Virus record (IMG/VR): IMGVR_UViG_3300028591_000076
Span: 1 to 64,000 of that record
DNA: 64,000 nucleotides
DNA from: a virus
Taxonomy: Duplodnaviria > Caudoviricetes
Direction: 5' to 3' (one strand)
The notes beneath the pieces were generated by a model that was not told where the DNA came from, did no database searches, and saw nothing but the letters and a program-made list of their open reading frames with translations. Shown in pieces: positions 1,369 through 58,778 of this stretch. Position 1 is the first letter of the stretch, and each line of letters starts with the position of its first letter. The translations under genes were made by a program, and so were the position numbers.

Positions 1369-2666
1369 GTGGGATGTAAGATTACACGAGACTGGAGTCT
1401 CGACCAAGGTAAAGCAGAATACTTAATGTTAACTGCCGACTTTGGTTCCTTACAATGATTCTTATGCGTTTAACTACCCAGGATACTTTTATGAACCCAT
1501 CAACTTTGGGTCACTGTGATCCTGGTTTATATGATATTTATAGGGCCGACACTGAATGTGCTGATGCCCATTCTAATACTGGCCGAATTGTCTTTGTTGA
1601 TTCTATTGGTGGCCAATTGTATGTATATACAATGGATGATGGCTCTAAGATTAAGCTATATCAAGATACTAAAATTCCTTACTTGAATAACAAGCTATCA
1701 CAAGACGTTCAGACTGGTGATATTCTGGAAGGGAAAAAAGTAGTTAGTATAGAACATCGTTCAATGACTACAAAAGAGTTTAAGTCTTTTACGAAAGATG
1801 GTTATATTGAAAAATACCAGGATAAACGTTTTGCTGGATGGCGACGTGCTTCTAAGACTGTAAACTTTGCTACACTCTTTGGCGCGACTGCGCCTACCAT
1901 GGCTAAGCAGCTTGAGAATGCTGGTTATAAAGAAGCAGAAGCGGAAGAATATATTGAGCTTACAAATAATACTGTAAGGTATAATGAGAAGCTTATTCAG
2001 ATGCGCGGTAAAATGACACCTCAGAAAGTTAAGTTTTTAGTAGCTGCAGAATTGATGCTCGAAGCTTATTATAATGGTTTCCCGGGTGTTAAAGAGAGAG
2101 CTCTGAGAGAGAAGCTTTTTGCTTGGAAAATGGGTTATTCTAGAATGTGGCATGGTCCTGTAAAGCATCTTCCAGAGCTTAAGTATATGGCAAGAAATGC
2201 TAAAGGTGAGCTAGTTGGAGCAGATAAGAAAATGTGGTCTTCAATGTTTAGTAACTTAAACAATGAAGCTGGAAATGCGCCAATTCAGTGTATGGAAGCG
2301 AATATTGCTATTAAGACTATTATAAATGTTTGTAAGTATGCTAAAGAGTGGAACTTAAAGTCTTATCTGTGGAACATGGTCCACGATTCGGAGGACTGGT
2401 GCGTTTGGAAACCAGAGCTTAATTTGGTTTGCGCATTATTAAATGCGTGTTCAACTTGGAAAAGAAACCCACATTTTGGTATTGATATGTGTATGGATTT
2501 TTCAATTTGTGATCCTTCTAAGGGATTTCAGAATAATATGTACCACGGTGGCCTAGAAAATCCATTTAAGATTGATAAAATAGAAGATGCCGTTGAAAAA
2601 TGGAATAAAGCACATGAAAATATTCCAGATTTTAAGCCTATTTCTTGGCATGGATGTGTTTGTTAG
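1369..2666 (+). CDS. polA: family A DNA polymerase, C-terminal (palm/fingers) part of a split gene; frame break at 1456-1463 in motif A
   Basis: GGAGGAGG + GTG(1369) opens 29 codons ending YLMLTADFGSLQ-TGA; ORF 1455..2666 continues MRL, DAHSNTG, motif B RRASKTVNFATLFG, NAPIQ, motif C VHDS. Confidence 0.85.
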
Positions 2667-2701
2667 TGGTTAAAATATTATAATAATTTTATTTTTATTA
2701 T

Positions 2702-2730
2702 AAAAATGCCCTTTTTAGAGGGCATTTTTT
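2702..2730. terminator. intrinsic terminator (bidirectional)
   Basis: AAAAATGCCCT..AGGGCATTTTT inverted repeat between convergent genes. Confidence 0.8.
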
Positions 2731-2795
2731 ATTATATACATCTTTTTAATAAAAATTTATAGTGAGCCATATTCCACAAAGATAATTTAAAAATT

Positions 2796-2819
2796 AAAAA
2801 GCCCCTAATTTAGGGCTTT
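2796..2819 (-). terminator. intrinsic terminator
   Basis: AAAGCCC..GGGCTTT hairpin with T tract on the minus strand, just after the LRR gene. Confidence 0.65.
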
Positions 2820-2825
2820 AATTAT

Positions 2826-3599
2826 TTATCCCACATAACTATAATTTACTACTGCTGGACAATATAAATTCCAATCGCCACCTTTAGTAATATTATTCCA
2901 TTGGCTCTCTGTTCCCCTATAATTTATACTTGATAACTTACTACAGCTAGCAAAAGCTTTATTACCAATAGTAGTAACGCTAGCTGGTATAATTATACTT
3001 ATTAAATTACTACAGCCATAGAAAGCAAAAACGCCAATAGAAGTAACTGAGTCTGGTATTTTTATACTTGTTAAATTTCTACAGCCATCGAAAGTGCCTT
3101 CTTCAATAGAAGTAACAGAGGCTGGTATATTTATACTCGTTAGTCCACTACAGTATCGGAAAGCCATCTCACCAATAGAAGTAACTGCATTTGGTATACT
3201 TATACTTGTTAAACCATTACAATACATAAAAGCGAGTCTGCCAATAAAAGTAACGGATTCTGGTATAGTTATACTTGTTAAACTCCTACATTCGTAGAAA
3301 GCTTTATCACTAATAGAAGTAACACCTTCTGGTATTTTTAGATTTTTTATTCTTTTATCCAATTTTGAACTTAAATTACCCGAATTAAGTAACTCTACTG
3401 GTATTTCATATACTAAATCAGTTATTTCTGACTTATCAGTTTTAACTACAATGTTACTAAAATTGGTACATTCGGCTGGAATAGGAATGCCACTGGATAA
3501 TGCTATATTTTTATCATAATTTTCGAAAATACCTCTATTGTCAAAGCTAACACTTATATTATCATCAGCCGTTTTTAATTTCTTAAAGGATATTTTCAT
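2826..3599 (-). CDS. BspA-type leucine-rich repeat (LRR_5) protein
   Basis: about six repeats of LTSIxIPxSVTSIGxxAFxxC. Confidence 0.95.
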   Translation of the reverse strand: MKISFKKLKTADDNISVSFDNRGIFENYDKNIALSSGIPIPAECTNFSNIVVKTDKSEITDLVYEIPVELLNSGNLSSKLDKRIKNLKIPEGVTSISDKAFYECRSLTSITIPESVTFIGRLAFMYCNGLTSISIPNAVTSIGEMAFRYCSGLTSINIPASVTSIEEGTFDGCRNLTSIKIPDSVTSIGVFAFYGCSNLISIIIPASVTTIGNKAFASCSKLSSINYRGTESQWNNITKGGDWNLYCPAVVNYSYVG

Positions 3600-3619
3600 A
3601 TAGAAATTAGTAACCTAAA

Positions 3620-3925
3620 TTAAGCATCTTTTGGCTTAAACTTACTTAAGTCTACATCTATATCATACATTTTTAATGGAAGTGTCTTTTTTTGTGGAAT
3701 ATGATTTATTTCTGCGAGCTTATTATAAAAGTCTAAGTCTTCTTTTTGCTCATAATTTTTAGCCGCTTCTAAAAAGCAAGATACATTAGAAAGGTTACTT
3801 ATAGAAAGTAATATAGCTTCCCAAACGTCTCTAGCTTCATTAGTAACTTCGCTCTCATATTGTGACATATCTTTTATAAATTTTGTTATTTTCGTATTTA
3901 TTTCGTCAATTTTTGTTGCTTTCAT
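3620..3925 (-). CDS. hypothetical protein
   Basis: 101-aa ORF preceded by ACTAAAT motif. Confidence 0.7.
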   Translation of the reverse strand: MKATKIDEINTKITKFIKDMSQYESEVTNEARDVWEAILLSISNLSNVSCFLEAAKNYEQKEDLDFYNKLAEINHIPQKKTLPLKMYDIDVDLSKFKPKDA

Positions 3926-3978
3926 ATTATAATAATTTAGTTTTTTATTGGTGCCTATTAAAATTCTTATTAAAAATA

Positions 3979-4407
3979 TTATAATGTCCTAAAATAGTTA
4001 TCTATTGTATTATAGTCATATAATACTTTGCTATTCATAAATATATCGTATATGTCCTTTTCTACTTGCTTTTTCGGAATAGTGCCTGTTTCACAAGAAG
4101 AGACTAATGATAAATTATTATCATAGAAGCTAAAGCATATACATAAAGCACTATAGCGTGCAGCTGCTAAATCTTTAAGGACTAATCTAATATTTTTTTC
4201 TGTTATTATGGACATGTCTTTTCTAATACTAATACCTATTGGTGAAAGACTTCCATATAGAGTTGTGCCAGACTTATTTTTAAAGTATATTTTTAATATA
4301 TTACTTTTACCGATAAGAAGAGGTATAGGACTCATTAGGCCATTCGTAAAATATATTTTATAGCCTTTATTATAAATATTTTCGCAAACTAAATTAAAGT
4401 CAAACAT
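3979..4407 (-). CDS. hypothetical protein (C-terminal YF-motif group)
   Basis: 142 aa, ends TIDNYFRTL. Confidence 0.7.
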   Translation of the reverse strand: MFDFNLVCENIYNKGYKIYFTNGLMSPIPLLIGKSNILKIYFKNKSGTTLYGSLSPIGISIRKDMSIITEKNIRLVLKDLAAARYSALCICFSFYDNNLSLVSSCETGTIPKKQVEKDIYDIFMNSKVLYDYNTIDNYFRTL

Positions 4408-4408
4408 A

Positions 4409-4957
4409 TTAAAAATATCCTTTATTTTTCATTAAAAAAATAGCCACTATGAAAAGTATAATATATAAAATTATTTTAATATTATATTTTTTTCTTCTTC
4501 TTTTTGGCTTTTTTAGTAATTTAGAGGATAAATAAAATCTCTTTAGCCATTGCCATAAATTTGTTGGCCCTATAAGCTGCGAAATTCGTTTTCTTAATAA
4601 AAAAACAGTTTTATCAATCTTTTTATTTTTTACTATAAATGCTTCTCTAGACTGAACTCTGCCTTCATTAGACTCTCCGTCCCATTTAACTAAATCTTTA
4701 CAATATTGTTTTATATATTTATGAATATCGTGGTCGCTCTTGTAAACTGTTGAGTCTAATAAAATATTATTGCAAGCATGTATATATAAAAGATTTTCTG
4801 ACCCAGTTATGGGGTCTTTTTTCTTTAAGAATTTATAATGTAATGTGCCTTTTGATTTATAAGCTGAATCTCTACCACCTAAAGTAGACTCTTCACCAAT
4901 TATGAGTATATCTTTATTTTCTTCTAAGTTACCCTTTCTTATATAAAGCTGTTTCAT
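4409..4957 (-). CDS. hypothetical membrane-anchored protein
   Basis: likely start MKQLY coupled to the upstream stop; basic patch then C-terminal hydrophobic helix. Confidence 0.65.
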   Translation of the reverse strand: MKQLYIRKGNLEENKDILIIGEESTLGGRDSAYKSKGTLHYKFLKKKDPITGSENLLYIHACNNILLDSTVYKSDHDIHKYIKQYCKDLVKWDGESNEGRVQSREAFIVKNKKIDKTVFLLRKRISQLIGPTNLWQWLKRFYLSSKLLKKPKRRRKKYNIKIILYIILFIVAIFLMKNKGYF

Positions 4958-5139
4958 TAAATAACAGTATACTCCAATACGTCTTTTTCTTCCCAATAAA
5001 AAGAAAGATTATCCGAATATATTGTGAAAAATCGCATATTTTCCTTATCCAGATACCCTCTTAAAACTTGATGAGCTAACCTAGCTTCGCCACAAGGCTT
5101 AAAGTATACATCAATCCAATTATCTTTTTTTGTTAACAT
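4957..5139 (-). CDS. hypothetical protein
   Basis: 60 aa, GGGAG RBS. Confidence 0.6.
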   Translation of the reverse strand: MLTKKDNWIDVYFKPCGEARLAHQVLRGYLDKENMRFFTIYSDNLSFYWEEKDVLEYTVI

Positions 5140-5156
5140 ATTTTTTCTCCCTTAAT

Positions 5157-5498
5157 CTATTCTGAATAATCATTAAAATATTTTTTGCCAGTATCATTAT
5201 AAACTAAATAGGTTATATGTGCGTCTGATATAATACGCCATTTTGGCGGCCACTTTTTAGAAATGCCAACTTCAGTTCTTACTTCATAGTCCATATTTAG
5301 TTTTGATAAAGCTATTCTCAAATATTTTCTATATCGCTTAAGCACAGTTGAATAACTTACGCCGTCTCTTATAAGTAATCTAGGCGGGGGCATTTCCACT
5401 TTTTGGTTTTTAATTATTTCATCAGATATTTCATCTAAATTATTTATTAAAAAGTTTAAAACTTTATTAAAATCACTTTTATTAAATTTTATAGACAT
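5157..5498 (-). CDS. hypothetical protein
   Basis: 113 aa directly after TTACATATT motif. Confidence 0.7.
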   Translation of the reverse strand: MSIKFNKSDFNKVLNFLINNLDEISDEIIKNQKVEMPPPRLLIRDGVSYSTVLKRYRKYLRIALSKLNMDYEVRTEVGISKKWPPKWRIISDAHITYLVYNDTGKKYFNDYSE

Positions 5499-5520
5499 AT
5501 ATTAAAAATATGTAAATTAA

Positions 5521-5550
5521 AAAGGCCTAGCATAATTTTGCTAGACCCTT
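5521..5550 (-). terminator. intrinsic terminator after replication operon
   Basis: CTAGCA..TGCTAG hairpin with T tract on the minus strand. Confidence 0.55.
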
Positions 5551-5554
5551 AAGT

Positions 5555-6166
5555 TTATTTTTTTATAAGTTCATCAATAAACATAGAATTTTCAAAAAAG
5601 TTTTTTCCAGCTACTTCATTATCTGGAAAGTCGTTATTCCTATATTTATTAAGGAATATTACTGAACTTCCGCCTTGAAACTTATACCTATTCTGTATAT
5701 GTTCAACATTTCTATTGAAGTCTTCATTTTTAGAAGTTCTTTCACCAAGAAGTTCAAGAATAAAAATATCTTTATATACCTGAACTTTATCTATTCGCCA
5801 AAGTCTCTGTGCTGATATTTCTTTCTTAGACGTAGGCACCTTTTCTGGATCGCCACCTTTCTCAATATAAATTGCCATTTCATGTGGCGTTAAGGGCCTT
5901 TCTACAGTTATATTCTCTATAACTTCAGGATACAAACTTAAAAGACTATTTTTTATATTATGTACCCATACTTTAGGGTCTTCATCATAGTCAAATGGAA
6001 AAAACTTTTTTGTTTTTGTGCCATCATGAATGATGAAAACGCCATCTACACATTTTTCAGTTCCGGTAATATCAGTAACAAGAATTGGCGCTCTCATGAG
6101 ATAAGCATGCAACTTATCCATTGCTTGACTTATCCACTTTTTACCATTCTTAGATTCCAAAATCAT
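5555..6166 (-). CDS. hypothetical protein in replication operon
   Basis: 203-aa ORF tightly packed with neighbours. Confidence 0.75.
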   Translation of the reverse strand: MILESKNGKKWISQAMDKLHAYLMRAPILVTDITGTEKCVDGVFIIHDGTKTKKFFPFDYDEDPKVWVHNIKNSLLSLYPEVIENITVERPLTPHEMAIYIEKGGDPEKVPTSKKEISAQRLWRIDKVQVYKDIFILELLGERTSKNEDFNRNVEHIQNRYKFQGGSSVIFLNKYRNNDFPDNEVAGKNFFENSMFIDELIKK

Positions 6167-6169
6167 TGT

Positions 6170-6457
6170 TTACTGACTCTCCTCTTCTTCATCCTCAGTC
6201 GCTGCGTCAATCATAGCACAAAGTGTAAAGTAATCTTCATTTACAGCTTCGCCGTCCTTTACACGCTTTCTATAATATTTATATGCATCCTTAAGGTCTG
6301 TTACAGAAACTTCTTTTTCCTGAGAAAAAGTCTTAAGCTGTTCTGTTGTATCAGCCTTAATCATTTTAATAGTTTCTTTATGAGTATCAATTTTATCCTC
6401 ATTATCATCCAAAGCTTCAAATAAGCCCAAAATTTCTGCACCTGATACGTTCTGCAT
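6170..6457 (-). CDS. putative dsDNA-binding protein (GapR/T4 DsbA-like helical protein)
   Basis: likely start MQNVSG after GAGGAG; heptad pattern IDTHKETIKMIKAD...LKDAYKYYRKR and acidic tail. Confidence 0.45.
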   Translation of the reverse strand: MQNVSGAEILGLFEALDDNEDKIDTHKETIKMIKADTTEQLKTFSQEKEVSVTDLKDAYKYYRKRVKDGEAVNEDYFTLCAMIDAATEDEEEESQ

Positions 6458-6458
6458 T

Positions 6459-6923
6459 TTAGTTCTCCTCTTTATTTTCCTGTGGCACATTTACCACTTT
6501 TTTATTTTCTTCGGCTTCCATACGGTCGCCAGTTTCTTTTATTACATTAGCTATATGAGACATTCTCTCTTCAAAAGCTCTAACAGCTTCTAAAGGCGTC
6601 TTAAAAAATCCAACTCGTAGATTCTGAGATGGTATATTTACATTTTCTGGCACTTTATCATCTATTATAGGTAATAATTTTGCCATTCTAACATTTGGTG
6701 TAGCGATAGACTGCTTATCATACTCTTCAAACTGAAGAGTGAGTACTTTAACAGTTTCTTTACCATCTGCATCTTTTTCAAAACCAGCAGAATAAATTCT
6801 ATCACCCTTCCTTAAATTATCAATCCAATCGCCACTTTCAATTGGAATATTATTATCAGTAGTTTCCTTTCTGATAAACTCGTCTACTTCTTGGAGTTTT
6901 TTCTGTGCTTCCTTCTTTTTCAT
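6459..6923 (-). CDS. hypothetical protein
   Basis: 154-aa ORF in operon. Confidence 0.7.
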   Translation of the reverse strand: MKKKEAQKKLQEVDEFIRKETTDNNIPIESGDWIDNLRKGDRIYSAGFEKDADGKETVKVLTLQFEEYDKQSIATPNVRMAKLLPIIDDKVPENVNIPSQNLRVGFFKTPLEAVRAFEERMSHIANVIKETGDRMEAEENKKVVNVPQENKEEN

Positions 6924-6934
6924 TTATTCCTATC

Positions 6935-7945: not shown

Positions 7946-7950
7946 ATATT

Positions 7951-9384: not shown

Positions 9385-9417
9385 TTATATATTCTCTTCA
9401 TTTAAAAATTAACGGGC

Positions 9418-14062: not shown

Positions 14063-14618
14063 TTTCTAATATATCTTTATACTTTCGTATTCTAAGGCCT
14101 TTTTCACCTTTCTTAAAATCTCTGGTACAACTTATTTCAGATAATTCTAACTCTACACTATAATCAGAGTTATTTGCGGCCCTATATAATTTTACTTTTT
14201 TATCATTTTCTTCATTCCTAAATATAATTATAATATAATCTTTATCATAAATATATGAATGATATTTACCAAGCGTATCAGAAAAATTAAAGGCCCAATC
14301 ATTAGCAGAGCCTACCGATATATTTTCTTTAACATTTTCTCGTAAATAACATAGCTTTTTATAAAGTTCCTTTTCTTTATTTATCTGGTCCTTACAGTCC
14401 TCAGTTATAATGCTAATTGACCTAAGAATATTATTCTTTTTATCAATCTCTATTTTAGAAGATGTTCTTGAGCCTATCTCAATAGATGACTCTTCGGTCA
14501 TACGATTAATATTATTAAGTTCAGTAATATTGACAATTAGATTTATCAATATAACAAATACTAGTAATACAGAAAATACAGCCCAAAATAAATTGGTAAT
14601 AGTTACTTTAGTTCTCAC
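14034..14618 (-). CDS. hypothetical protein with N-terminal TM helix
   Basis: GTG start, hydrophobic N-terminus. Confidence 0.65.
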   Translation of the reverse strand: MRTKVTITNLFWAVFSVLLVFVILINLIVNITELNNINRMTEESSIEIGSRTSSKIEIDKKNNILRSISIITEDCKDQINKEKELYKKLCYLRENVKENISVGSANDWAFNFSDTLGKYHSYIYDKDYIIIIFRNEENDKKVKLYRAANNSDYSVELELSEISCTRDFKKGEKGLRIRKYKDILEIVNRMCQYE

Positions 14619-15338
14619 TTTTTTGTCCTTTATAGCTAATCGACTCTAACTCACTAATCACTTCATCTAATTTAAGAATTTTATGAGTATAATCAAGACA
14701 TACATTATAATAATCTCTTATATCCACTTTTTTATTTGGATATGCTATTTTAGCTTCTGGTGGTTCAAGACCATTTTTTCTGTATGCTCTTGCTTCCATT
14801 GCCCAATTTTCTAGATCCTTACAATGATATAACTCATCGATACAGGTATTATGTGTATGGCCATAGATTACTTTAAAAGGCGAATTTTTTCCAATATAAA
14901 CAGGCTCATGACAAAGAATATATTTATCCTCAATAATAATTGGATGATCATAAACTTTATCAAAACCAAGCTCGGTAAAAAATTGAATAAGAGACTTATT
15001 CCTTATACCTAAAGTTTTAAGAATAGTTCTATCATGATTACCTAATACGAGATTAAGTGTTCTCTTTACTCCTTTCATTCTACTTACATATGACTTTAAG
15101 CAATTTATACCAGCATCAGCTAACATTTTTGAAAAGAATACATCACCTAAATTCCAAATTATAGTATTATTATCATCAGGCAAGTTATCAAAGAGTTTAA
15201 GAATATCTTCGTTCATTCTAAAGATTTCTTCTCTCTTTGTATAATCATATGGTCTATTACAATATTTTATGATATTTGCATGAAAAAAGTGCTTACCTAA
15301 TGTAAGTCAGAAATAATATATTCATTTCTAACCGCCAT
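14608..15338 (-). CDS. calcineurin-like metallophosphoesterase, interrupted by an 11-nt gap (15289-15299); about 239 aa if the gap is skipped
   Basis: AGGAGG-ATG(15338) MAVRNEYIISDLH-TAG, then FFHANIIKYCNRPY in the frame of ORF 14608..15216 with LGD, GNHD, CHEP, GHTH motifs. Confidence 0.9.
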
Positions 15339-15365
15339 TTTTATCCTCCTTATTTATATAAATTA

Positions 15366-45599: not shown

Positions 45600-47807
45600 T
45601 TAAGTATTGGCAGTTTCTGGTATTTCATCCGTATTAACATCTCCACCAAGGAGGTTTGTTTTGTTTTTCGGATCGCCAGCGCCATTTTCTCCTTTTTTAT
45701 CATTTTGGTCGCCATTAGTATCACTTTGAGACTGTTCCGCTTGTTCCTTATTAGTCTCACTTGCTGGCGTATCTTGGTTATTAGATTCTTGTTTATTTTT
45801 ATTTTCCTCATTAAGTGCTTCTTGTCTAATTTTTGGAGATTTAGCTTCATCCAGTGCAACTAAGAATTCATTTATTTTATCCCAACCAATATTTTCTATA
45901 TTTCTACCCGTAAAATTTATTAAAGCCTGATCTAGACTTAATGGACTTGTCTGTCCACTATTAGGTGTTAATGAATATAATCTTACTATTAATGTTTTAT
46001 CTTCTTCTGCTAGCGGTCCATTATTAGTAGATAAAGTAGGACTTACATTTGTTGGTTGTTCATTAGCGTTATTTGTACCATTATTATTAGGCGCTACTTG
46101 TTCAGACTCATAAAATTTTTTCATAAATACATCCACTAAATCAAAGTTTGTAGACTCATTCTTTACTTGATTATCAGCTTGACTATTTGTAGAGCTTATA
46201 GTGGTATCAGTATTTTGTATATCCGAATCATCAACTTCAGCCAAAATTTTTTCTAATTCTGCTCTTTCTTCAGGAGTTAGTTCTTGGTTAGACTTAAATT
46301 TATTAGAAATCTTTTCCCAATTAATTTTACGTCTAGAGTCCCAAGCATTTTTACCAGACTGTGCTAGCTCTTTAGCTTTTTTAAATTTCTTATAAGGCAT
46401 AAGTAAGCTAGAAAAGCTAAAGTTTGAAAGGCCTATGGCATCTCTAAATGCTTTTAAGTCTTCTAAGTGGCCAACTTCAAAGAATTTATCTAAATCTTTA
46501 AAGAACTTTTCTGTTGAACTCTCATTTTCCGATTCAGTAGCTTTTAAGTTAAAGTTTGGATTACCATAAACGTCTATATTTCTATATTTTAAGTACCATT
46601 TATAATAATCAAAAAATGCAACTAAAAATTTCTTATCTATAGCTCTATATTTACTGATAACGTTAGCATTATTAAAATCAAAACGTGTAAGATATTTGCT
46701 AGATATATTATCTGGATTTTCATCTATGGATTTTATTGTAGCTTTTTCGTAAGACTCAATTCTATCAAATGTGCCTTTTAACGCTTTATTTAAATTTATA
46801 CTAGGCTCAGTAGCGCCGCTTATACATACTACCTTTGGACACCAGTTAAAATATTTTTTATAAGGTTCAGTACAGAAAATTACAATATTATTCTTATTTG
46901 CTGAGCCTCTAAGCTTTCTAATTTTTTGTAAGAAAGACATTTCATCTAGAAATCCGCCAGTTACTTTAGACTGGTTCTTATTGAAGACTTCTTTTTCAAT
47001 ACCCAGCATAGCATTGCCTTTTATAAGGCCTTGACTCTTAGGGAATATTTCAAAATTATTATAAATATTGGCTAATTCTTCTATCATTGCGCCAGCATTT
47101 GAAAATTCTTGTCCCATTTCTTTAATTGATGCTGGTACATAAATTAATGTTGACCAATCACCTTTTTTATTAGAGTATACAGTACTAGTTGACCTATCAT
47201 TTGTAGGTGACCTACCATTATTATCTTTCTTAAATTCATGATTTAACTGAATAAGTGCATTTTTCATATTTACTGCACTTGTATAAGCGTTAATAGGCCA
47301 TACAAAAATAGATGCGGCATGGTCTGCAGAATAGGATACATTCATTGATCCAATTTCATTATATGTTGAACTCTGATTTGGCGTATTAGCATTATAATTT
47401 AATCCTATATTGCTATTGTCCTGACCTATATTATTATTCTGTACAGTATTCTGAGAATTAATTATACCAGCGGGGCTAGCCTGTGTATATTGATTAGCTA
47501 GATTAGCGCTATTCATATCGCCTTCTACCAATTTCTTATTATACTTATATGGTAGCGCGCCAGTTTTATTAAATTCTTTGAACTCAGATTTCATATCTTT
47601 GGTCATAGAACTAATATCATTCTTTTCCCAAAAAATATAAAAATTGTCATATCCATTAGCTTTAGCTTTTTTAGACTCTTCCTTTAGAATAGCATAATTT
47701 GGGATGCTATCTATAGTAGAAATAAATGCATTAGAATATGCACTTTTTTGTTTTTCTATGTTATATTTATCAAAACCTTCAGTAAAAAATACAATATAAT
47801 CTTTCAT
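45600..47807 (-). CDS. large Asn-rich hypothetical protein between portal and terminase
   Basis: 735 aa; low-complexity N/Q tracts; several LxE sites. Confidence 0.7.
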   Translation of the reverse strand: MKDYIVFFTEGFDKYNIEKQKSAYSNAFISTIDSIPNYAILKEESKKAKANGYDNFYIFWEKNDISSMTKDMKSEFKEFNKTGALPYKYNKKLVEGDMNSANLANQYTQASPAGIINSQNTVQNNNIGQDNSNIGLNYNANTPNQSSTYNEIGSMNVSYSADHAASIFVWPINAYTSAVNMKNALIQLNHEFKKDNNGRSPTNDRSTSTVYSNKKGDWSTLIYVPASIKEMGQEFSNAGAMIEELANIYNNFEIFPKSQGLIKGNAMLGIEKEVFNKNQSKVTGGFLDEMSFLQKIRKLRGSANKNNIVIFCTEPYKKYFNWCPKVVCISGATEPSINLNKALKGTFDRIESYEKATIKSIDENPDNISSKYLTRFDFNNANVISKYRAIDKKFLVAFFDYYKWYLKYRNIDVYGNPNFNLKATESENESSTEKFFKDLDKFFEVGHLEDLKAFRDAIGLSNFSFSSLLMPYKKFKKAKELAQSGKNAWDSRRKINWEKISNKFKSNQELTPEERAELEKILAEVDDSDIQNTDTTISSTNSQADNQVKNESTNFDLVDVFMKKFYESEQVAPNNNGTNNANEQPTNVSPTLSTNNGPLAEEDKTLIVRLYSLTPNSGQTSPLSLDQALINFTGRNIENIGWDKINEFLVALDEAKSPKIRQEALNEENKNKQESNNQDTPASETNKEQAEQSQSDTNGDQNDKKGENGAGDPKNKTNLLGGDVNTDEIPETANT

Positions 47808-50119: not shown

Positions 50120-50130
50120 ATTTTAATGTC

Positions 50131-50385: not shown

Positions 50386-50387
50386 AA

Positions 50388-50894: not shown

Positions 50895-50982
50895 AATTAA
50901 ACCTCTTTCTAAATTAGTTTAAAATTTGTTTTTTCACTAATATATAATATATATTATCTAAAATAAGGAAATACTATAGAAA

Positions 50983-52023
50983 ATGAATATTATTATACCT
51001 ACTGATGACCAAGGTAATATGACTTCGTTAGATAATCTGCATAATGCTGTTTTTCTTGCTGGACCATGTCCTAGAGAAGATTATGAGAAAAACGACGTTT
51101 GGAGAAAAGAAGCATATTCAATTTTTGAAGATATTGGCTTTGACGGTGATATTTTAAATCCAACAAATAAAAATTATGGCTTAATGAAAGACCTAACAAA
51201 GCAAACAGATTGGGAAAATGAAGCAATGCATAAAGCATCCGCTATTATTTTCTATCTTGAAAGAACTGAGAAGAATCCGGGATTTACATCAAATGTAGAA
51301 ATAGGCATGTGGCTTAAATCAAATAATATTTTTGTGTGTATTCCAGACGACTCAAGAAAAAAGAATGCAAATGCTTATATTCGTATTAAGTGTGACCAAG
51401 CTGGCATACCCGTTTTTAATACATTAGAAGAAACAATTATTGCTGTAGATGAAAGGCTTAATAGGGAAGAATCAAAAAAATGGTTTATTTCTGATACTCA
51501 TTTTAGCCAGCAAAGAACATTAGACTTTAGTAAAAGGCCATTTAGAAATGTAAGAGAAATGGATTTAGATATAATTTCTAATTGGAATAAAACTGTTAGT
51601 GTAAATGATGATGTTTATGTACTTGGCGACTTTGGGGAAAATGATAAATATCTAGACTGCCTTAATTTCAAAACATTACATTTTGTTAAAGGCAACTATG
51701 AACGTGATAAAGTTCCAGACTTAGTAGAGTCTCTAAAAAAACGAAAAAATGTAAAAGTCTATAATAATGATGAATGTAAAATAAAAGTTGGCGATTTTAA
51801 TTGTGTATTACGTCATGAGCCAATAACAGATTATAAATTAAAAGATGATGAATTTGTACTTTATGGACATATTCATGGACGTCAGTTTATAAAAAATAAA
51901 GGATTAGATGTTGGTGTTGATTGTCATAACTTTACGCCAGTATCGGAAGAAGACGTAGCGTTTTATTTAAATGCTATAGATAAAGGCTATTATGATAATC
52001 AAGTTATGAATAAAATAAACTAA
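50983..52023 (+). CDS. nucleoside 2-deoxyribosyltransferase-like domain fused to metallophosphoesterase
   Basis: VFLAGP..WR..NP..QTDWE..TSNVEIG, then ISDTHF, LGDF, GNYE, RHEP, GHIH, DVGVD. Confidence 0.88.
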   Translation: MNIIIPTDDQGNMTSLDNLHNAVFLAGPCPREDYEKNDVWRKEAYSIFEDIGFDGDILNPTNKNYGLMKDLTKQTDWENEAMHKASAIIFYLERTEKNPGFTSNVEIGMWLKSNNIFVCIPDDSRKKNANAYIRIKCDQAGIPVFNTLEETIIAVDERLNREESKKWFISDTHFSQQRTLDFSKRPFRNVREMDLDIISNWNKTVSVNDDVYVLGDFGENDKYLDCLNFKTLHFVKGNYERDKVPDLVESLKKRKNVKVYNNDECKIKVGDFNCVLRHEPITDYKLKDDEFVLYGHIHGRQFIKNKGLDVGVDCHNFTPVSEEDVAFYLNAIDKGYYDNQVMNKIN

Positions 52024-52027
52024 AATT

Positions 52028-52055
52028 AAAAAAGCTGCCTAAATGGCAGCTTTTT
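52028..52055. terminator. bidirectional intrinsic terminator
   Basis: AAAAAGCTGCC..GGCAGCTTTTT. Confidence 0.88.
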
Positions 52056-52057
52056 AT

Positions 52058-53043: not shown

Positions 53044-53054
53044 TTTTTAATTCC

Positions 53055-53495
53055 TTAAATATCTCTAAAAACTACAATTGGTAATGATTTTTTTAATAAA
53101 CTTAAAATATCAGTATCACAAAATCCATACCAAATTTTATTAATTTTCGCTAAGTCTTTTTTAGACTCACAAACATAAATTGTTTCAACTTCACAACATC
53201 CACAACAAATGCACTTCTTAAATTCAGTTTGTTCTAACTTGTTAATAACATCTGAAACGGTCAATATTGAGAGACGTTCATAGATAGAGTCATCTCCCGT
53301 ATAGTCATCCATATAGTTATTATCAAAAGTTAGATGGTCTTTCTCTTCTTGGATAGACTGTGCTATATCAAATCCGTTGCAAGAGGGACAGCCATCACCA
53401 TCTTGAAACGCGATATATGCATTCGGTAAATTTAAATTTTTTAAGATTGCATAAATATTCTTATTAGAAATATCTTTAATATCAATTTCTTTCAT
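53055..53495 (-). CDS. hypothetical Cys-containing protein
   Basis: CPSC and CICCGCC. Confidence 0.65.
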   Translation of the reverse strand: MKEIDIKDISNKNIYAILKNLNLPNAYIAFQDGDGCPSCNGFDIAQSIQEEKDHLTFDNNYMDDYTGDDSIYERLSILTVSDVINKLEQTEFKKCICCGCCEVETIYVCESKKDLAKINKIWYGFCDTDILSLLKKSLPIVVFRDI

Positions 53496-53551
53496 AAAAA
53501 TCTCCTTTTTAAAATATGTAATAATCTATAATAATATGTAAGCATAAATAG

Positions 53552-53584
53552 AAAAGTCCTATAAACTTATAATTTATAGGACTT
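53552..53584 (-). terminator. intrinsic terminator after RNA ligase
   Basis: AAGTCCTATAAA..TTTATAGGACTT. Confidence 0.75.
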
Positions 53585-53603
53585 ATAATCTGATAATCTT
53601 AAA

Positions 53604-54875
53604 TTACCATTCTACTTTAGCTTTTACGCCTAAATCATTCATAATAGGAAGGTAAATATCAGTATATCCTTTTTTAAGATTTATCATTTTTTCTTTAATC
53701 ATTTTAGCAATTGGTTTTCCATCAGCAGCTGAAAAATAAATATTTCTTAAATTTGGCTTAACCTGACCATTTACAAATTCCGCAAAATGTTTTCTATTAT
53801 GTTTTGAGTCATTATCCCAAACATCAATAGCATAAGCAACTTCAGCATCTAATTTTTTATTGAACTCAACTAACTGCTTTACTTGCGCATCTATTTTATC
53901 TTTAAGCTCTGGCGCATTTGGAAGAATATCATCATACTGCTCAGATATAACTAAACGCCAAATACCTTCAGGATTATCATTGTCTCTAACGAATTTCATA
54001 TTAAGATATGATGGCGACTTCATTTTTACACGAGTCCAATTTTCCTCATCAACAACAACAAATCCTTCATTTTCAATGCCATTCATTTTCGAAAGCGCTT
54101 CAAGAATATCTTCGCGCTTATTAAGGTCCCAGCGTTTTGGAATATCAAATGGTATACCAAACATTGTGGCTACTTCTTCTGGGCTATGCTCAATACCTTC
54201 AGCGTCTCTAGCCCCATGGAACCAAAGCTTAGTATCTGAATATTTTACAATAATACGATTTTGTGGAGAGGTAAGCTCAAACATTAGAGTCCAACCATCT
54301 GGCACTTTATCAAGCCAACTAGCAACTACATGGAAGTCTATTCTCTTATTATCTTTATCAGTAAGAATATTACAAACAGCATTTGGATCAGCATTAGCTA
54401 TTGCGGAAGACATTAAATCAAAGTAGTCTTTAACTGTTTCAGTTTCATAGTCAAGTGGAGTAAAAAGGCCCGTTCCGCCATTAGTTACCCAATAGTCTCG
54501 TCCTTTATACTTAAAACACTTATTTAATTGACCATCCACTTTAAGCTCTGTTTTAAGTTTTTTAGAGTCCCAGTTAATTTTGTCTGCGTGTGGGTCGTTA
54601 ATATCAAAGAACTTAAGATAAGGAGCACAAATTACATTTACAGTCCCATCAGGAAGAACTTCAACTACAGTACCACGGCACTGTTTAACAATTTTATTAC
54701 TTAAGTCAGAAGAAAACAAATTATAAACTAGCATCCACCAAGTAGGATGATTTTCAAATTGCTTTATTGCTTGTAAATTATATGGCGCTTTTTTAAGTTT
54801 ATCAACCCAAGCATTATTTTTAAAATTTTTCTTAATAAATTCTTCCAACTCTTCAAAATTTTTCATAAAAACCAC
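53604..54875 (-). CDS. RNA ligase 1 (T4 Rnl1/RnlA family)
   Basis: CRG, KFF, KVDGQL (motif I), FELTSPQNRIIV, EGFVV, RVKMKSPSY. Confidence 0.92.
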   Translation of the reverse strand: MVFMKNFEELEEFIKKNFKNNAWVDKLKKAPYNLQAIKQFENHPTWWMLVYNLFSSDLSNKIVKQCRGTVVEVLPDGTVNVICAPYLKFFDINDPHADKINWDSKKLKTELKVDGQLNKCFKYKGRDYWVTNGGTGLFTPLDYETETVKDYFDLMSSAIANADPNAVCNILTDKDNKRIDFHVVASWLDKVPDGWTLMFELTSPQNRIIVKYSDTKLWFHGARDAEGIEHSPEEVATMFGIPFDIPKRWDLNKREDILEALSKMNGIENEGFVVVDEENWTRVKMKSPSYLNMKFVRDNDNPEGIWRLVISEQYDDILPNAPELKDKIDAQVKQLVEFNKKLDAEVAYAIDVWDNDSKHNRKHFAEFVNGQVKPNLRNIYFSAADGKPIAKMIKEKMINLKKGYTDIYLPIMNDLGVKAKVEW

Positions 54876-54887
54876 TCCTTTGCTATA

Positions 54888-55151
54888 TTATATAATCTTT
54901 TTCATATATAACTTATAGCCGCTATAATTTCTATTCACTAAGTCTAACGCTTCTTCATATGAATAATGAATAGCACCATCAATGCCATTCGCGTCTTCTT
55001 CTACATTATAAACTTTGGTAGGACACCAATCTGGATGTACAGAATTATGCGTAAAAATAAATCTATTATATCCTAGTTCATCTGGCTTATCTGTTTCTGC
55101 AATAATAATATATTTAGAATTATCCATAATAAATTTCCTCAATATTGGCAT
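54888..55151 (-). CDS. hypothetical protein
   Basis: likely start MDNSK. Confidence 0.6.
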   Translation of the reverse strand: MPILRKFIMDNSKYIIIAETDKPDELGYNRFIFTHNSVHPDWCPTKVYNVEEDANGIDGAIHYSYEEALDLVNRNYSGYKLYMKKII

Positions 55152-55527
55152 TATTATATAAATGTTCTAAAAATTTAATAGTATGTTCTTCATCTACTAA
55201 TGTATAATATTTATTTGTTTCAAAGTTTATATTACTATTATTGTTACTTAATTCACAAACTAAAAACTGTCCCATAGGATCAGAGTCTAGCATTTCCTTA
55301 TCGGCATATTTTCTAAAAATAAAAAATATAGAGGTATTTGACATATTTAACTTAGCATTATATATAATTTGATAGGGCCCAATGTTAAAATAGTTATCAA
55401 TACCGTCCTTTGATATGCTAATTAAATATTCTAAGTAATTTCTATAAATTTCTTTATTAGATAATATATTATTTTTAATTTTTTGAAATAAATATTCATT
55501 AGCGGCAGACTCTACTTGCGAAAACAT
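55120..55527 (-). CDS. hypothetical protein, paralog family with 55639, 56422, 57595
   Basis: GQFLVCEL..FETNKY..IKFLEHLY; ends IEEIYYG. Confidence 0.7.
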   Translation of the reverse strand: MFSQVESAANEYLFQKIKNNILSNKEIYRNYLEYLISISKDGIDNYFNIGPYQIIYNAKLNMSNTSIFFIFRKYADKEMLDSDPMGQFLVCELSNNNSNINFETNKYYTLVDEEHTIKFLEHLYNNANIEEIYYG

Positions 55528-55638
55528 TTATTCTCCATAAAAAATCTTATTTCAATATTATTTATAATATGTAGGATATACTGTGCTAGTGTGAATGGAT
55601 ATTTTGCTAAAGACTAAATATTCTTTTAAATTATATAA

Positions 55639-56037
55639 TTAAAAATATTCTTGTAATATTGAGTTTTTATATTGCTTTAAGTTATATAAATCATCCAAAA
55701 ATTTTAGTATTAGTCTTTCTTCACTCTCTGAAATATAGCGGTTACCCTCAAAATCTACTTTGATATTATTTAACTCAAACCATAAAAACTGTCCAAATAC
55801 TTCTTCATTATCTCTATTAAGAGGACCAAAAGCAAAAAAAGTAAAGGTTTTGGTAATAGAATTATAATTCCACTTTATTTCAAATTCATTAAAAAATAAA
55901 GATTTACAATCATCACCTATACAGTCTATTCCAATTGCTCTATATAATATTGCTGAATAAGCTTTTTCTCTAGAAGTTATTTTTTTATAGATTTCTTTCG
56001 CTAACTGCTCATTTTCCATTATAGTATGCGTAAACAT
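55639..56037 (-). CDS. hypothetical protein, paralog of 55120..55527
   Basis: GQFLWFEL..FEGNRY..LKFLDDLY; ends ILQEYF. Confidence 0.7.
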   Translation of the reverse strand: MFTHTIMENEQLAKEIYKKITSREKAYSAILYRAIGIDCIGDDCKSLFFNEFEIKWNYNSITKTFTFFAFGPLNRDNEEVFGQFLWFELNNIKVDFEGNRYISESEERLILKFLDDLYNLKQYKNSILQEYF

Positions 56038-56038
56038 T

Positions 56039-56419
56039 CTAATCTGCCTTTTCTAACTTTACTTTAAGAGGTTTAGCTGGAATATTTTCAAATTCAGTAT
56101 TTACCATACAAACTATATCTTCTAGAATATTCCTGCTCATCGGATAATTCTGTATATATAAATAAGAAGCTAATCCAATCTTTTTCTCATCATTCTTAAA
56201 AATTGCTCTAAAATATGGTAACATATAAGAATAATATGATATATATGCACGTGCTAAATTTGTTGATGAGTCTAATTCTGCATCAAGTTCAGAAGTTTTT
56301 ATTTTTGTAACACAGCCTGATGATTTTGACCTTATAATTTGCTCTATTATAGTTTTTAGATTAACTATAAAAAGAATTACTGTAATTGCTATAATTACTA
56401 ATGATAATAATTGGTCCAT
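56039..56419 (-). CDS. hypothetical protein with N-terminal TM helix
   Basis: hydrophobic N-terminus. Confidence 0.65.
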   Translation of the reverse strand: MDQLLSLVIIAITVILFIVNLKTIIEQIIRSKSSGCVTKIKTSELDAELDSSTNLARAYISYYSYMLPYFRAIFKNDEKKIGLASYLYIQNYPMSRNILEDIVCMVNTEFENIPAKPLKVKLEKAD

Positions 56420-56421
56420 TT

Positions 56422-56769
56422 TTATTCTCCATAATAATCGTCTACTTTATTTTCAAACTTAATATAACTTAAGAATTTAGACAAGAGTCTATCTTCTCTT
56501 TCTGTTTCTATATCAGAAAAAAAGCCAGATGCTAAATTATAACTTAAAAAAGTTTGCATTCCAAAGTTTACTAAAACTTTATCAGCCTGTCTATAATCAG
56601 GATGTACATACATAAGAATACTAAAAGGACCAAGCTTTTTCTCATAAAATGCTTGAAAAGAACCCTCATATAAAAGATTTATAATTTTAGCATTCTTAAA
56701 ATCTAGCTTAGAAATATAAACTTCTATTAAGTCTCGATCTTCGAATGGCATAAAAAAACCTGTACCCAT
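56422..56769 (-). CDS. hypothetical protein (YY-motif group)
   Basis: LLSKFLSY; ends VDDYYGE. Confidence 0.65.
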   Translation of the reverse strand: MGTGFFMPFEDRDLIEVYISKLDFKNAKIINLLYEGSFQAFYEKKLGPFSILMYVHPDYRQADKVLVNFGMQTFLSYNLASGFFSDIETEREDRLLSKFLSYIKFENKVDDYYGE

Positions 56770-56773
56770 AATA

Positions 56774-57181
56774 TTAAAAATAATTACTAGCGATACTTAT
56801 AGAATGCATTATCGCATTTTTATCTCTATAAAATATAACTGTAAATTTTTTCTTAAATACCTTTATAAAAGTACATTCCATATTATTAGACTTCTTAAAA
56901 ATACTAACTTGAGAAAGATAGCCCTCATTTAATAATCTTCCAATACTACAATCTTTATAATATTTTGCATAGCGCTCATAATTTAAAAATGTAGTAACTT
57001 TATATTTATCATCTAAGGGTACAGAGTATTTTGTTAGGCCATATCCATCATCAAATATTTTTTCTGTACTCATTTCATTATCATTAAAAGTATTATCAAT
57101 CTTAAAATCTGATAAAGTTAAAGACTCTAAAAACTCTGCAATTTGATTTATTTCATTTATGTCTTCTATGCTATTAAACAT
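56774..57181 (-). CDS. hypothetical protein (YF-motif group)
   Basis: ends IASNYF. Confidence 0.65.
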   Translation of the reverse strand: MFNSIEDINEINQIAEFLESLTLSDFKIDNTFNDNEMSTEKIFDDGYGLTKYSVPLDDKYKVTTFLNYERYAKYYKDCSIGRLLNEGYLSQVSIFKKSNNMECTFIKVFKKKFTVIFYRDKNAIMHSISIASNYF

Positions 57182-57187
57182 ATTATT

Positions 57188-57589
57188 TTATTCGTTAAGA
57201 CAAATATAATATTTACTATCTTCGCCTTGTATTATTTGTAAATTATGACCATTTTTACAAGTAAAGCCCCATATAGCTTCTACTTTGGAATTATTAGTAT
57301 CTTCCCAAGCGCATTTTGTTTCTACATCAATATCAGTCACTACATTTTCATATGTATCTACTTTTTGCGCTGTAACTTTAATGCATTGTGGCACATCATC
57401 TACGGTAAATCGCCATTTTATACCAGTTGATCTTTCCAAAGAAAATTTTAAATAGTATGTATAAAGGTCATCTATATCAAAAAGTGAAGCCTTATCAATA
57501 GTAGTAAAATTAAATTGACCACATAAATTTGATAAGTAACAATCATTATTATTACTATTTCCTTGTGCTAATAGCGTGTCCATACCCAT
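57188..57589 (-). CDS. hypothetical protein
   Basis: 133-aa ORF in operon. Confidence 0.65.
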   Translation of the reverse strand: MGMDTLLAQGNSNNNDCYLSNLCGQFNFTTIDKASLFDIDDLYTYYLKFSLERSTGIKWRFTVDDVPQCIKVTAQKVDTYENVVTDIDVETKCAWEDTNNSKVEAIWGFTCKNGHNLQIIQGEDSKYYICLNE

Positions 57590-57594
57590 TACCT

Positions 57595-57954
57595 CTATTC
57601 ATAATATTCCATTTCTGAAAGATGCATATAAAATTGACTTAAGAACTTTAATACAAGCGTTTTATTAGGCCCAGAAATAAATGTGCATTCTTCTTTATCT
57701 GAGAATCTAGAAATTCCATAATAAATAACTTGTTCTTCATTATGGAATACTCTAAATTCATAAGTAAAGTTTTTGCTATAGCTATCTATAATACCTTTAA
57801 CCTTAAAACTACCAATATCAAATTCTAAATCTGAATTTTTTACTTTCTCTATGAAAAAATCAAAAACTTTATCTTCGCTTTTATTAAAAAATTCTTTTAT
57901 TTCTTCATAAGCACTCTTATCTATTAAGCAATTAATTTTTAATGGATATGCCAT
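57595..57954 (-). CDS. hypothetical protein (YY-motif group)
   Basis: LVLKFLSQFY; ends LSEMEYYE. Confidence 0.65.
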   Translation of the reverse strand: MAYPLKINCLIDKSAYEEIKEFFNKSEDKVFDFFIEKVKNSDLEFDIGSFKVKGIIDSYSKNFTYEFRVFHNEEQVIYYGISRFSDKEECTFISGPNKTLVLKFLSQFYMHLSEMEYYE

Positions 57955-57957
57955 AAA

Positions 57958-58778
57958 CTAGTCATCCGTAGGAATTACTTTTTCAATATATTCCTTATCT
58001 TGAGTAAAAATTGGAATTTCCTCATCGATTTCCCACCGTGAGCGATTTATTTTTTCATCAAATACATGAATTACACAAGAACCCCGTTTTTCTACAGTCT
58101 TACGGTCATTCCAGTTAATATTCTTTTCTTCATGAAGTTTATCTTGAAGCTGTGAATTATTTAAGCCCTGTATTTGCTTCTGTGAAAAATTCGCTTGAGC
58201 AAGTCCCTGAATTGAATTACGAGTTGCATCATTCTGACGCCAAATGAAATAATTAACAATTTCATTTTCTGGAATATTAAATGCTCTAGCATCAAAATAT
58301 CCACCTAATTCAGTTTTCTTTAAAAGGACATTTTTGTAAAAACGTTCATCTTCATCTTCACGAAAATTATCCTCAACTCTTTCTTTATAGAACTTCTCTA
58401 CCAAGTCTGCCCAATTCTTATTAAAGTACATTGTGGCCATTGACGCAGCGACAGAACAAATTTTCTGAACAGAATAATCAAACCATGCATCGGTCTGTAA
58501 ACTATCATAGTCAGTCAAAAGTAATGAAATTTCGTCAGACTCTACATATCCTATCTTACATCCTTGAATATGCTCACAAAGGTCCTTAGTAGTTAATTGC
58601 ATTACTTCAATAAAAAGTGGGTCATAAGGTTTTCTTAAACCCTTACAAAAACTATGAAAATGACCTAATGACACCCGTCAATACGAATAATGACGGGTGT
58701 CCTACGAGTTAAATATGTCTTAGAGCGGTTTTCGTAGAAATCCTTCATACGATCCCCGAGTGAGTCTCTTACAGCCAT
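57958..58778 (-). CDS. thg1: tRNA(His) guanylyltransferase Thg1/TLP, interrupted by an 8-nt gap (58660-58667); about 270 aa if the gap is skipped
   Basis: AGGAGG-ATG(58778) MAVRDSLGDRMKDFYE...TPVIIRIDGCH-TAG, then FHSFCKGLRKPYD, YVESDEISL, FDARAF, YFIWRQNDATRNS in another frame. Confidence 0.93.

Follow-up and report, generated by a model that had tools for sequence, protein, structure and literature searches.

The first 64 kb (hereafter, the window) of a linear, 239,841-bp IMG/VR viral contig (IMGVR_UViG_3300028591_000076, contig G000) from an uncultured jumbo phage contain two enzyme genes, one Thg1-like and one encoding a metallophosphoesterase, in which an in-frame stop codon and a few additional nucleotides (nt) interrupt the active-site region. 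As read from the sequence, each of these genes probably carries a miniature, hairpin-assisted bypass element, at which the ribosome would hop over the stop from one His codon to another. This reading draws on the inserts and their conservation, the matched codons, the covarying predicted structures, the selection acting on the gene bodies and the mosaic distribution of the alleles; from these we infer that ribosomes hop, how efficiently they do so and that the hairpin drives the hop. A first-pass annotation had described three sites of this layout, the third in the gene of a family A DNA polymerase (PolA). The coordinates and features of all three are as it gave them, and uninterrupted relatives show the gaps to be exactly 8, 11 and 8 nt long. 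The shared bypass layout is borne out for Thg1 and the phosphoesterase, which combine matched His codons, an adjacent stop, a variable gap, covarying hairpins and selection, but not for PolA, which has no matched codons and no significant structure, and whose relatives carry differing inserts.

The Thg1 leader open reading frame (ORF; 58665..58778, minus strand) starts at ATG 58778, behind the Shine-Dalgarno (SD) site AAGGAGGAGAG (58784..58794, minus; read from the sequence, as are the other SD sites of the window). Its 37 codons plus TAG end in ..IIRIDGCH and encode the N-terminus of the enzyme with the catalytic Asp of the RIDG motif; this segment is colinear with intact relatives and matches positions 2-28 of the Pfam Thg1 profile. 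At the hop site (58660..58670, minus), the codon CAT (58670-58668) is followed by TAG (58667-58665), the dinucleotide GT, a second CAT (58662-58660) and TTT. The body, counted from the landing codon to the stop (57958..58662, minus; 234 codons), matches Pfam Thg1 positions 27-130 (E 3e-21). Directly upstream, a predicted 5′ stem-loop with an 11-bp GC-rich stem (58670..58701, minus) has the C of the take-off CAU as its final base. In relatives with 79-89% identity (P0005, P0006, P0010 and others), one uninterrupted ORF encodes ..IIRIDGCHFHSFC.. (IDGCHFHSF), with no extra residue, so that the insert in the window is exactly 8 nt long. A bactofilin-like gene (PF04519, E 4e-8; window 58846-59649, minus) lies directly upstream of Thg1, and one likewise precedes the intact Thg1 of relative L059.

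The phosphoesterase gene follows the same plan. Behind the SD site AAGGAGGA (15344..15351, minus), a leader ORF (15297..15338, minus) runs from ATG 15338 through 13 codons (MAVRNEYIISDLH, ending ..SDLH) to TAG and carries the D-x-H metal-binding motif. The hop site and a take-off stem-loop share the interval 15289..15309 (minus), in which CAT (15302-15300) is followed by TAG (15299-15297), GTAAG, CAC (15291-15289) and TTT; a further stem-loop on the 5′ side (15305..15333, minus), with a 12-bp stem, ends 2 nt before the take-off CAU. The body (14608..15291, minus; 227 codons from landing codon to stop) gives a weak match to Pfam Metallophos, and its full-length relatives P0126 and P0132 carry PF00149. 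The uninterrupted relative L015 (82%) reads GAC ACT CAT TTC TTC CAT (SD-x-HFFH) and is 11 nt shorter than the window, which sets the insert at exactly 11 nt. The string CAT-TAG-GT, the His landing codon followed by TTT and the take-off hairpins, all pointed out in the first-pass annotation, were confirmed for both genes. Elsewhere in the same genome, a fusion of a nucleoside 2-deoxyribosyltransferase-like domain with Metallophos_2 (window 50983-52023, plus) is an uninterrupted, distant relative of the phosphoesterase.

Gene callers reduce these enzymes to startless fragments, and at least ten database clusters are called from an internal Met; the DNA of interrupted relatives was traced from such proteins, with L061 added by a pattern scan of IMG/VR. 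Together with the window, these gave nine interrupted alleles, namely Thg1 of the window, L008/L009, L010 and L019, and phosphoesterase of the window, L012, L013, L014 and L061. The Thg1 junctions read CAT TAG TT CAT in L008/L009, CAT TAG TT CAC in L010 and CAT TAG GTT CAT in L019 (61% identical), the last being a 9-nt, in-frame insert. Those of the phosphoesterase read CAT TAG GTAAG CAC/CAT in L012 and L014, CAT TAA GTAAG CAT in L013 (78%) and GAC CTC CAT TAG CTGGAGGT CAC TTT TTT CAT in L061. The last allele belongs to a complete 395-kb phage of 44% GC whose phosphoesterase is only 39% identical to that of the window, and its leader again comprises 13 codons behind AGGAGGTG. All nine alleles keep the CAU take-off codon, an adjacent stop (UAG in eight, UAA in L013), a variable spacer of 2-8 nt (GT, TT, GTT, GTAAG or CTGGAGGT) and a CAU or CAC landing codon followed by a Phe codon. 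In bypassing, one tRNA has to decode both the take-off and the landing codon, and the pair CAU to CAU/CAC is found in every one of the nine Thg1 and phosphoesterase alleles; such a pair is lacking at PolA. The displacements across the nine amount to 8, 8, 8, 9, 11, 11, 11, 11 and 14 nt and, judged by the junctions, would all fit either a hop or removal of the gap. The same Thg1 and phosphoesterase inserts occur in independent Logan, ENA, JGI and IMG/VR assemblies, which excludes assembly error at these two genes, an objection that the first-pass annotation had itself raised.

Conventional recoding would have to combine a -1/+2 frameshift in the 8-, 11- and 14-nt alleles with readthrough in the 9-nt allele, adding two to four residues to the product, and is very unlikely here. 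In the 8- and 11-nt alleles read by hand, the body frame indeed extends upstream without a stop as far as a TGA close to the 5′ side of the take-off codon, so that a -1 shift would give a fusion. However, the slippery pattern X XXY YYZ is absent, and GGG is replaced by GGC in L008. Since the 9-nt allele of L019 is in frame, frameshifting is not the common mechanism, and two different mechanisms would be needed for the alleles of one element. The extra residues would also come after the catalytic Asp and before the conserved FH / FFH, where no homologue examined, including about 55 intact alleles of the Thg1 tree, has an insertion, and the matched His codons would be left unexplained.

RNA structures were computed folds, with z-scores taken against shuffled sequences and energies compared over fixed windows (48 nt for Thg1). 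In every interrupted allele, a predicted hairpin ends 0-2 nt before the take-off codon, with energies of -10 to -19 kcal/mol in the fixed windows and z-scores of -2.0 to -5.0 (six alleles). The Thg1 stem-loop of the window folds at -21.6 kcal/mol (z -5.0), and interrupted Thg1 alleles form a 10-11-bp stem at -17 to -19 kcal/mol over 48 nt (z -3.2 to -5.0). This stem is retained in L008, L010 and L019, in L008 through a C-G to G-C exchange together with a G-U pair and in L019 through a G-U pair. The 5′ stem-loop of the window phosphoesterase folds at -14.8 kcal/mol (z -3.9). Interrupted phosphoesterase alleles form a 10-12-bp stem at -10 to -14 kcal/mol, kept in L012, L013 and L014; at the same place, L061 has a 10-bp 5′ stem unrelated in sequence to that of the window, i.e., covariation at the level of the helix, and the intact L015 lacks the stem. 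Energies of intact alleles range from -1.8 to -10.6 kcal/mol, with z-scores of +0.8 to +0.9 for L015, L016 and L018, the sole exception among those examined being L011 at -14 kcal/mol.

The exception is a gapless Thg1 allele (L011:1300-1440) that keeps a 9-bp version of the hairpin and is without an in-frame start codon. At its 5′ end stands the tandem ATGTAAAAGG / ATGTAAAAAG, which provides two ATG-TAA start-stop pairs, both out of frame with the gene; P0111 and P0117 appear to resemble this allele. L011 could be a derivative that arose after loss of the gap, or represent another odd initiation arrangement.

The phosphoesterase has a second predicted stem-loop, which includes the gap. In the window, it pairs UG(A)CUUAC with GUAAGCA, and its loop holds the AU of the take-off codon along with the stop codon. 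The corresponding stem of L061, UGACCUCCA / UGGAGGUCA, has 9 bp and folds at -14.7 kcal/mol (z -4.6). Comparison of the two stems shows that the phosphoesterase gap covaries with the paired Leu codon.

Removal of the gap before translation, either by excision and re-ligation of the RNA, by polymerase realignment at direct repeats or through a subpopulation of gap-free DNA, appears improbable. Several features point towards it: the phosphoesterase gap lies within a stem-loop, direct repeats of 3-6 nt flank the gaps, and an Rnl1-type RNA ligase (53604..54875, minus; PF09511, E 1.4e-13), part of an RNA-repair context outside the element, is encoded 3 kb from Thg1. Nevertheless, the cut points needed would be asymmetric in the stem, and we know of no endonuclease of such specificity; the anatomy thus lends no support to the Rnl1-assisted removal of micro-introns offered in the first-pass annotation. 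In some alleles, only 2-3 nt of the repeats are left (TCA in L010; CA in the phosphoesterases of the window and L012), and the independent assemblies all retain the gap. A conserved stop beside the take-off codon and a consensus SD site are features of translation, not of splicing. No Rfam family scored at or above its gathering score anywhere in the window, so that neither a group I intron nor another catalogued RNA is present there.

The initiation signals of interrupted genes are also distinctive. Interrupted alleles of all three genes have SD sites of the (T)AAGGAGG type, and their intact counterparts have shorter cores. For Thg1, the (T)AAGGAGG core is present in 4/4 interrupted alleles, as compared with cores of 3 to 7 nt in intact ones; the intact phosphoesterase of L015 has GGAG only. 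A stronger SD site fits compensation for a lossy or inefficient step, or a high ribosome load.

The gene bodies downstream of the inserts are under purifying selection. Between the Thg1 bodies of the window and L008, both interrupted, the ratio of nonsynonymous to synonymous substitution rates (dN/dS) is 0.065, at a synonymous divergence (dS) of 1.42. All six pairs of interrupted phosphoesterase bodies give dN/dS of 0.12-0.20 (dS 0.33-1.24), and the PolA bodies of the window and L053 give 0.058 (dS 0.52). No further lesions were seen in the interrupted gene bodies compared. Decay with scattered lesions and a dN/dS near 1, the other outcome anticipated as damaging to the idea, was therefore not observed, with values lying at 0.06-0.20.

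To place the interrupted alleles among intact ones, a tree of 61 Thg1 bodies was used, four of them from interrupted alleles. Each of the four is sister to an intact allele, three with starred support. The interrupted alleles do not form one clade; four changes are needed, and their grouping was rejected by the AU (approximately unbiased) test (p 4e-9). In the pairs L009/L059 and L019/L060, DNA identity is about 96-97% from the insert onward (read by eye from alignments), whereas the leaders are far more divergent (roughly 60%) and the upstream genes differ. Leader and body identities also disagree, with 81% vs 69% between L008 and L019 and 69% vs 90% between L008 and L016, and leaders of interrupted alleles are more alike than their bodies predict. 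Because similarity breaks at the insert and leaders and bodies disagree, the SD site, leader, hairpin and gap behave as one unit at the 5′ end that can be exchanged, with the junction of recombination lying at the insert.

Homing endonuclease genes accompany some of the interrupted sites. A free-standing one (521..1345, plus; PHROG 314, E 1.8e-20) lies directly upstream of the PolA leader in the window, and the equivalent position in L053 is occupied by one of another family (1368..2345; PHROG 3339). In L009, an endonuclease gene (38..850; PHROG 655, E 1.7e-35) lies directly upstream of the interrupted Thg1, and the near-identical intact sister L059 has none. A partial ORF upstream of the intact Thg1 in L060 (L060:1-486) has in common with the L009 endonuclease a 53-residue C-terminal domain (43% identity) and a weak NUMOD3 motif; thus, this intact locus may, on weak grounds, also have an endonuclease upstream, and endonucleases seem to have settled repeatedly in the 5′ flank of Thg1. 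Of the neighbouring ORFs tested against Pfam and PHROGs beside Thg1 or the phosphoesterase of the window, none matched an endonuclease, and the interrupted Thg1 of L010 has no such gene beside it. In L057, which has an intact PolA gene, no ORF of endonuclease size was called directly upstream, its upstream ORFs not having been searched against family libraries. The element may have spread as, or together with, immunity to homing endonucleases. By analogy, this would parallel the MobA/gene 60 cassette of phage T4, in which the insert protects against cleavage (bioRxiv 10.1101/2022.08.31.505936), but here the association with endonuclease genes is only partial.

The same data bear on the possibility that the inserts are selfish or protective lesions, e.g., conferring immunity to homing endonucleases at active-site DNA, with the genes silenced or expressed by trace amounts of unprogrammed read-over and recombination outpacing their decay. 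The scattering of interrupted alleles among intact sisters, the junctions at the insert, the endonuclease genes beside PolA (window and L053) and the interrupted Thg1 of L009, and the protective gene 60 insert all speak in its favour, and they give some support to the earlier suggestion of tiny selfish insertions at conserved motifs, although the association with endonucleases is incomplete and extends to neither Thg1 nor the phosphoesterase in the window. We regard such lesions as an unlikely explanation. The module has diverged (leaders are 70-81% identical), yet the stop, both His codons and, via compensatory changes, the hairpin have been kept, and the phosphoesterase element persists between phages whose enzymes are only 39% identical. 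An upgraded SD site and selection on a hairpin would make little sense in a dead gene.

The PolA site is of a different kind. Its C-subunit leader (1369..1458, plus) begins at GTG 1369 behind the SD site GGGAGGAGG (1354-1362, plus), comprises 29 codons ending ..TADFGSLQ, including the motif A Asp, and stops at TGA 1456-1458. An 8-nt insert, TGATTCTT, follows the Gln codon (1456..1463, plus), and the body, which covers the palm and fingers from motif A onward (Pfam DNA_pol_A; 1464..2666, plus), resumes at ATG 1464. The intact relatives P0246-P0248 and L057 read MGCKI...TADFGSLQMRLTTQDT (DFGSLQMRL) and are 8 nt shorter, which fixes the insert at exactly 8 nt. In L053, with a 95% identical body, a 7-nt insert (TGAGCCC) follows MRL, three codons downstream of the site in the window, and in L056 (63%) five extra bases lie inside an Arg codon (CGG CC CGU); both fall within four codons of the window site. 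The L053 insert follows CUU and so creates CUU_UGA, a shifty stop found in no other allele, where a +1 shift would add two residues. No significant structure was detected at the PolA inserts of the window, L053 or L056, and a hop from Gln CAA or Leu UUA was rejected, as a cognate landing codon is absent in the right frame. From their sequence and setting, the PolA inserts are read as endonuclease-linked indels at a target hot spot, separate from the His hop.

Termination and re-initiation, with leader and body made as separate polypeptides, would be the most plausible alternative at PolA, and is a remote prospect for the set as a whole. In the window, ATG 1455 overlaps the TGA (ATGA) and ATG 1464 lies 5 nt past the stop, making re-initiation possible, and in this phage group the family A polymerase is already encoded in two parts, an N subunit (exonuclease and the start of the polymerase domain) and a C subunit, with ORFs in between. 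Thg1 of the window likewise has a GTG 9 nt before the stop. On the other hand, this GTG is CTG in L008, the phosphoesterase body has no start for 83 nt, L053 and L056 lack a start at the PolA junction, and a 13- or 29-residue peptide with one catalytic Asp is unlikely as a subunit. The N-terminal subunit was not found on the contig, which starts just upstream of the C-subunit gene. Many relatives have a shorter C fragment of about 300 aa that starts near residue 95 of the window protein (L056:1-3733; proteins P0253-P0269), an indication that mobile elements have split the gene further.

For Thg1 and the phosphoesterase, a His-to-His hop could proceed as follows. A consensus SD site would load ribosomes on a short leader that is the true N-terminus of the enzyme, with its first catalytic Asp. 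Decoding would pause once the P site holds peptidyl-tRNA-His paired to CAU and the A site presents UAG or UAA. The hairpin 5′ of the take-off codon, melted by the ribosome during its passage, would re-form at the mRNA exit and pull the message by about the length of the gap; in the phosphoesterase, the second, small stem-loop would hold the stop and pair the gap with the Asp-Leu-His codons. Peptidyl-tRNA-His could then re-pair with the next CAU or CAC, 5-11 nt downstream, and translation would resume at the Phe codon. The predicted product is a single polypeptide colinear with uninterrupted homologues, and the expected junction peptides are IDGCHFHSFCK for Thg1 and ..SDLHFFHANIIK / NEYIISDLHFFHANIIK for the phosphoesterase.

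Several points weigh against this reading. A take-off stem-loop of the gene 60 type would not fit into the short Thg1 gap. The leader is the enzyme's own N-terminus, and no nascent-peptide signal conserved among relatives was found in it: leader starts vary (MVSDK in L008, MAEKD in L010, MTVRN in L013, MSGQK in L061), so that the MAVR start, which the first-pass annotation had noted at two sites, is not conserved in relatives and is unlikely to act as such a signal. Every interrupted Thg1 allele has a close intact sister, and part of the measured selection may accordingly predate the insert. No tRNA genes were found in the window or on the whole 239,841-bp contig, so that a phage tRNA-His or suppressor is absent from the assembled part. 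Finally, Weiss and co-workers are reported to have found in 1987 that unprogrammed stop-hops have an efficiency on the order of 1%.

To our knowledge, only a handful of systems are established cases of efficient natural bypassing, namely T4 gene 60 with its homologues and the byps of yeast mitochondria. The elements described here resemble gene 60 in the stop directly after the take-off codon, the combination of a 5′ stem-loop with a take-off stem-loop, the insertion in a conserved enzyme region, and a patchy, mobile-like distribution with a link to homing endonucleases, here adjacent for PolA and one Thg1 allele. For gene 60, too, pairing of the exiting mRNA in a 5′ stem-loop has been proposed as a forward driver (bioRxiv 10.1101/2024.12.09.627546). 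Unlike gene 60, with 47 nt between its codons and a Gly-Gly pair, the present elements have a gap of 5-11 nt, a His-His pair, no conserved nascent-peptide signal and no endonuclease beside Thg1 or the phosphoesterase in the window, and the His-His pair is shared by two unrelated genes within a single genome. There is no sequence or gene homology with the gene 60/MobA cassette, since the genes are Thg1 and Metallophos rather than topoisomerase.

Closer in size is the terminase of the Streptomyces phage phiHau3, for which bypass of two 10-nt inserts (7 nt in a prophage) has been proposed and a junction peptide was detected by mass spectrometry in E. coli (PMC10732093). Both cases involve very short, frame-breaking inserts in a conserved phage enzyme that are absent from homologues, a proposed 5′ stem-loop and several inserts per genome. 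In phiHau3, the A-site codon is the rare UUA, tied to the host bldA tRNA, rather than a stop; its bypass has experimental backing, whereas the present case, known from sequence alone, offers nine alleles, covariation and an in-frame variant. In the synthetic stop-hops of Weiss et al. (1987) in E. coli reporters, +5, +6 and in-frame 9-nt hops have been seen; natural short counterparts have long been presumed, and no natural in-frame stop-hop was known (reviewed in PMC5009743). There, as proposed here, peptidyl-tRNA detaches from the codon before the stop and pairs anew with a matched codon a few nucleotides further 3′, but those constructs are artificial and inefficient, and the present sites are natural, conserved and flanked by dedicated predicted structures. 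The byps of Magnusiomyces mitochondria (27-55 nt) are likewise short, mobile inserts, many per genome, bypassed through matched codons; they are longer, GC-rich, mitochondrial and number dozens per genome, as opposed to two sites on a 240-kb contig. Given the phiHau3 proposal, which was partly tested (PMC10732093), and the classic synthetic matched-codon stop-hops (PMC5009743), the initial assertion that nothing of the sort had been described in phages was too strong. No description of a conserved natural His-stop-His hop in two genes was found in the literature.

To determine whether the element recurs elsewhere in the genome, the whole contig (GC 30%; completeness estimate 76%, CheckV) was scanned for short SD-led leader ORFs that terminate inside a long ORF's 5′ extension devoid of start codons; the scan recovered the sites of Thg1 and the phosphoesterase and no others. 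Among short ORFs behind a 6-mer consensus SD site, only the three leaders of Thg1, the phosphoesterase and PolA precede a long startless body. Short ORFs with a strong SD site at 45685, 131237, 201163, 41434 and 45661 were rejected as leaders of interrupted genes, and long ORFs with long startless 5′ extensions proved to be ordinary genes. The octamer CATTAGGT is not enriched (12 copies vs about 8.5 expected by our base-composition estimate), and only its copies in Thg1 and the phosphoesterase are in frame behind an ORF. A generic scan of G000 and the 395-kb G001 for junctions of a codon, a stop and a matching codon was too noisy to reveal further sites.

Searches beyond these two genomes added little. 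No close relatives were found in the phage GenBank collection, and protein-guided scans of IMG/VR with the phosphoesterase and with PolA returned nothing. A pattern scan for the Thg1 element gave 0 matches in IMG/VR and 0 in GTDB genomes; the phosphoesterase pattern gave one true match (L061) and five chance matches in IMG/VR and nine chance matches in bacterial genomes.

About half of the long genes in G000 have no SD site. Many of these SD-less genes carry a recurring (A/C)CTAAT(T) motif 8-10 nt 5′ of the ATG, as in the window around 17439 and in G000 at 77248, 79726, 191422, 196642, 204204, 211062 (minus), 202746 (minus) and 184020 (minus). For one class of genes, this motif could serve as a promoter or as an initiation signal of another type.

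Rnl1 lies near Thg1, and in the distant relative L001 an Rnl-like ORF (named by eye), Thg1 and a phosphoesterase are adjacent; both interrupted genes therefore plausibly belong to one RNA-repair pathway. The 240 kb of this jumbo phage encode Thg1, Rnl1 and a repair-type phosphoesterase, yet tRNA genes went undetected; about a quarter of the genome is missing. The shared RNA-repair context keeps a regulatory link to tRNA-His possible. It is doubtful that the His-stop-His hop serves as a regulatory sensor rather than being just a tolerated scar, and that the module also moves as a hairpin-driven cassette. If the sensor idea were true, the behaviour of peptidyl-tRNA-His, as set by its G-1 or queuosine state or by damage from an anticodon nuclease of the host, would together with release-factor activity control the output of two RNA-end-repair enzymes, the tRNA-His guanylyltransferase-like Thg1 protein and the healing-type phosphoesterase, and the phage would switch on tRNA repair upon attack on host tRNA.

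Together, these observations describe a compact element of about 50 nt, hairpin included, that recurs in two unrelated genes of one phage and would represent a rare case of very short natural translational bypassing. Its natural variants of 8, 9, 11 and 14 nt would form a mutational series on how an exiting-mRNA hairpin, a stop and codon re-pairing move the ribosome. For annotation, the consequence is that interrupted enzymes of this kind are miscalled as startless fragments. For the biology of jumbo phages, the element would link small recoded inserts to recombination and to the dynamics of homing endonucleases.

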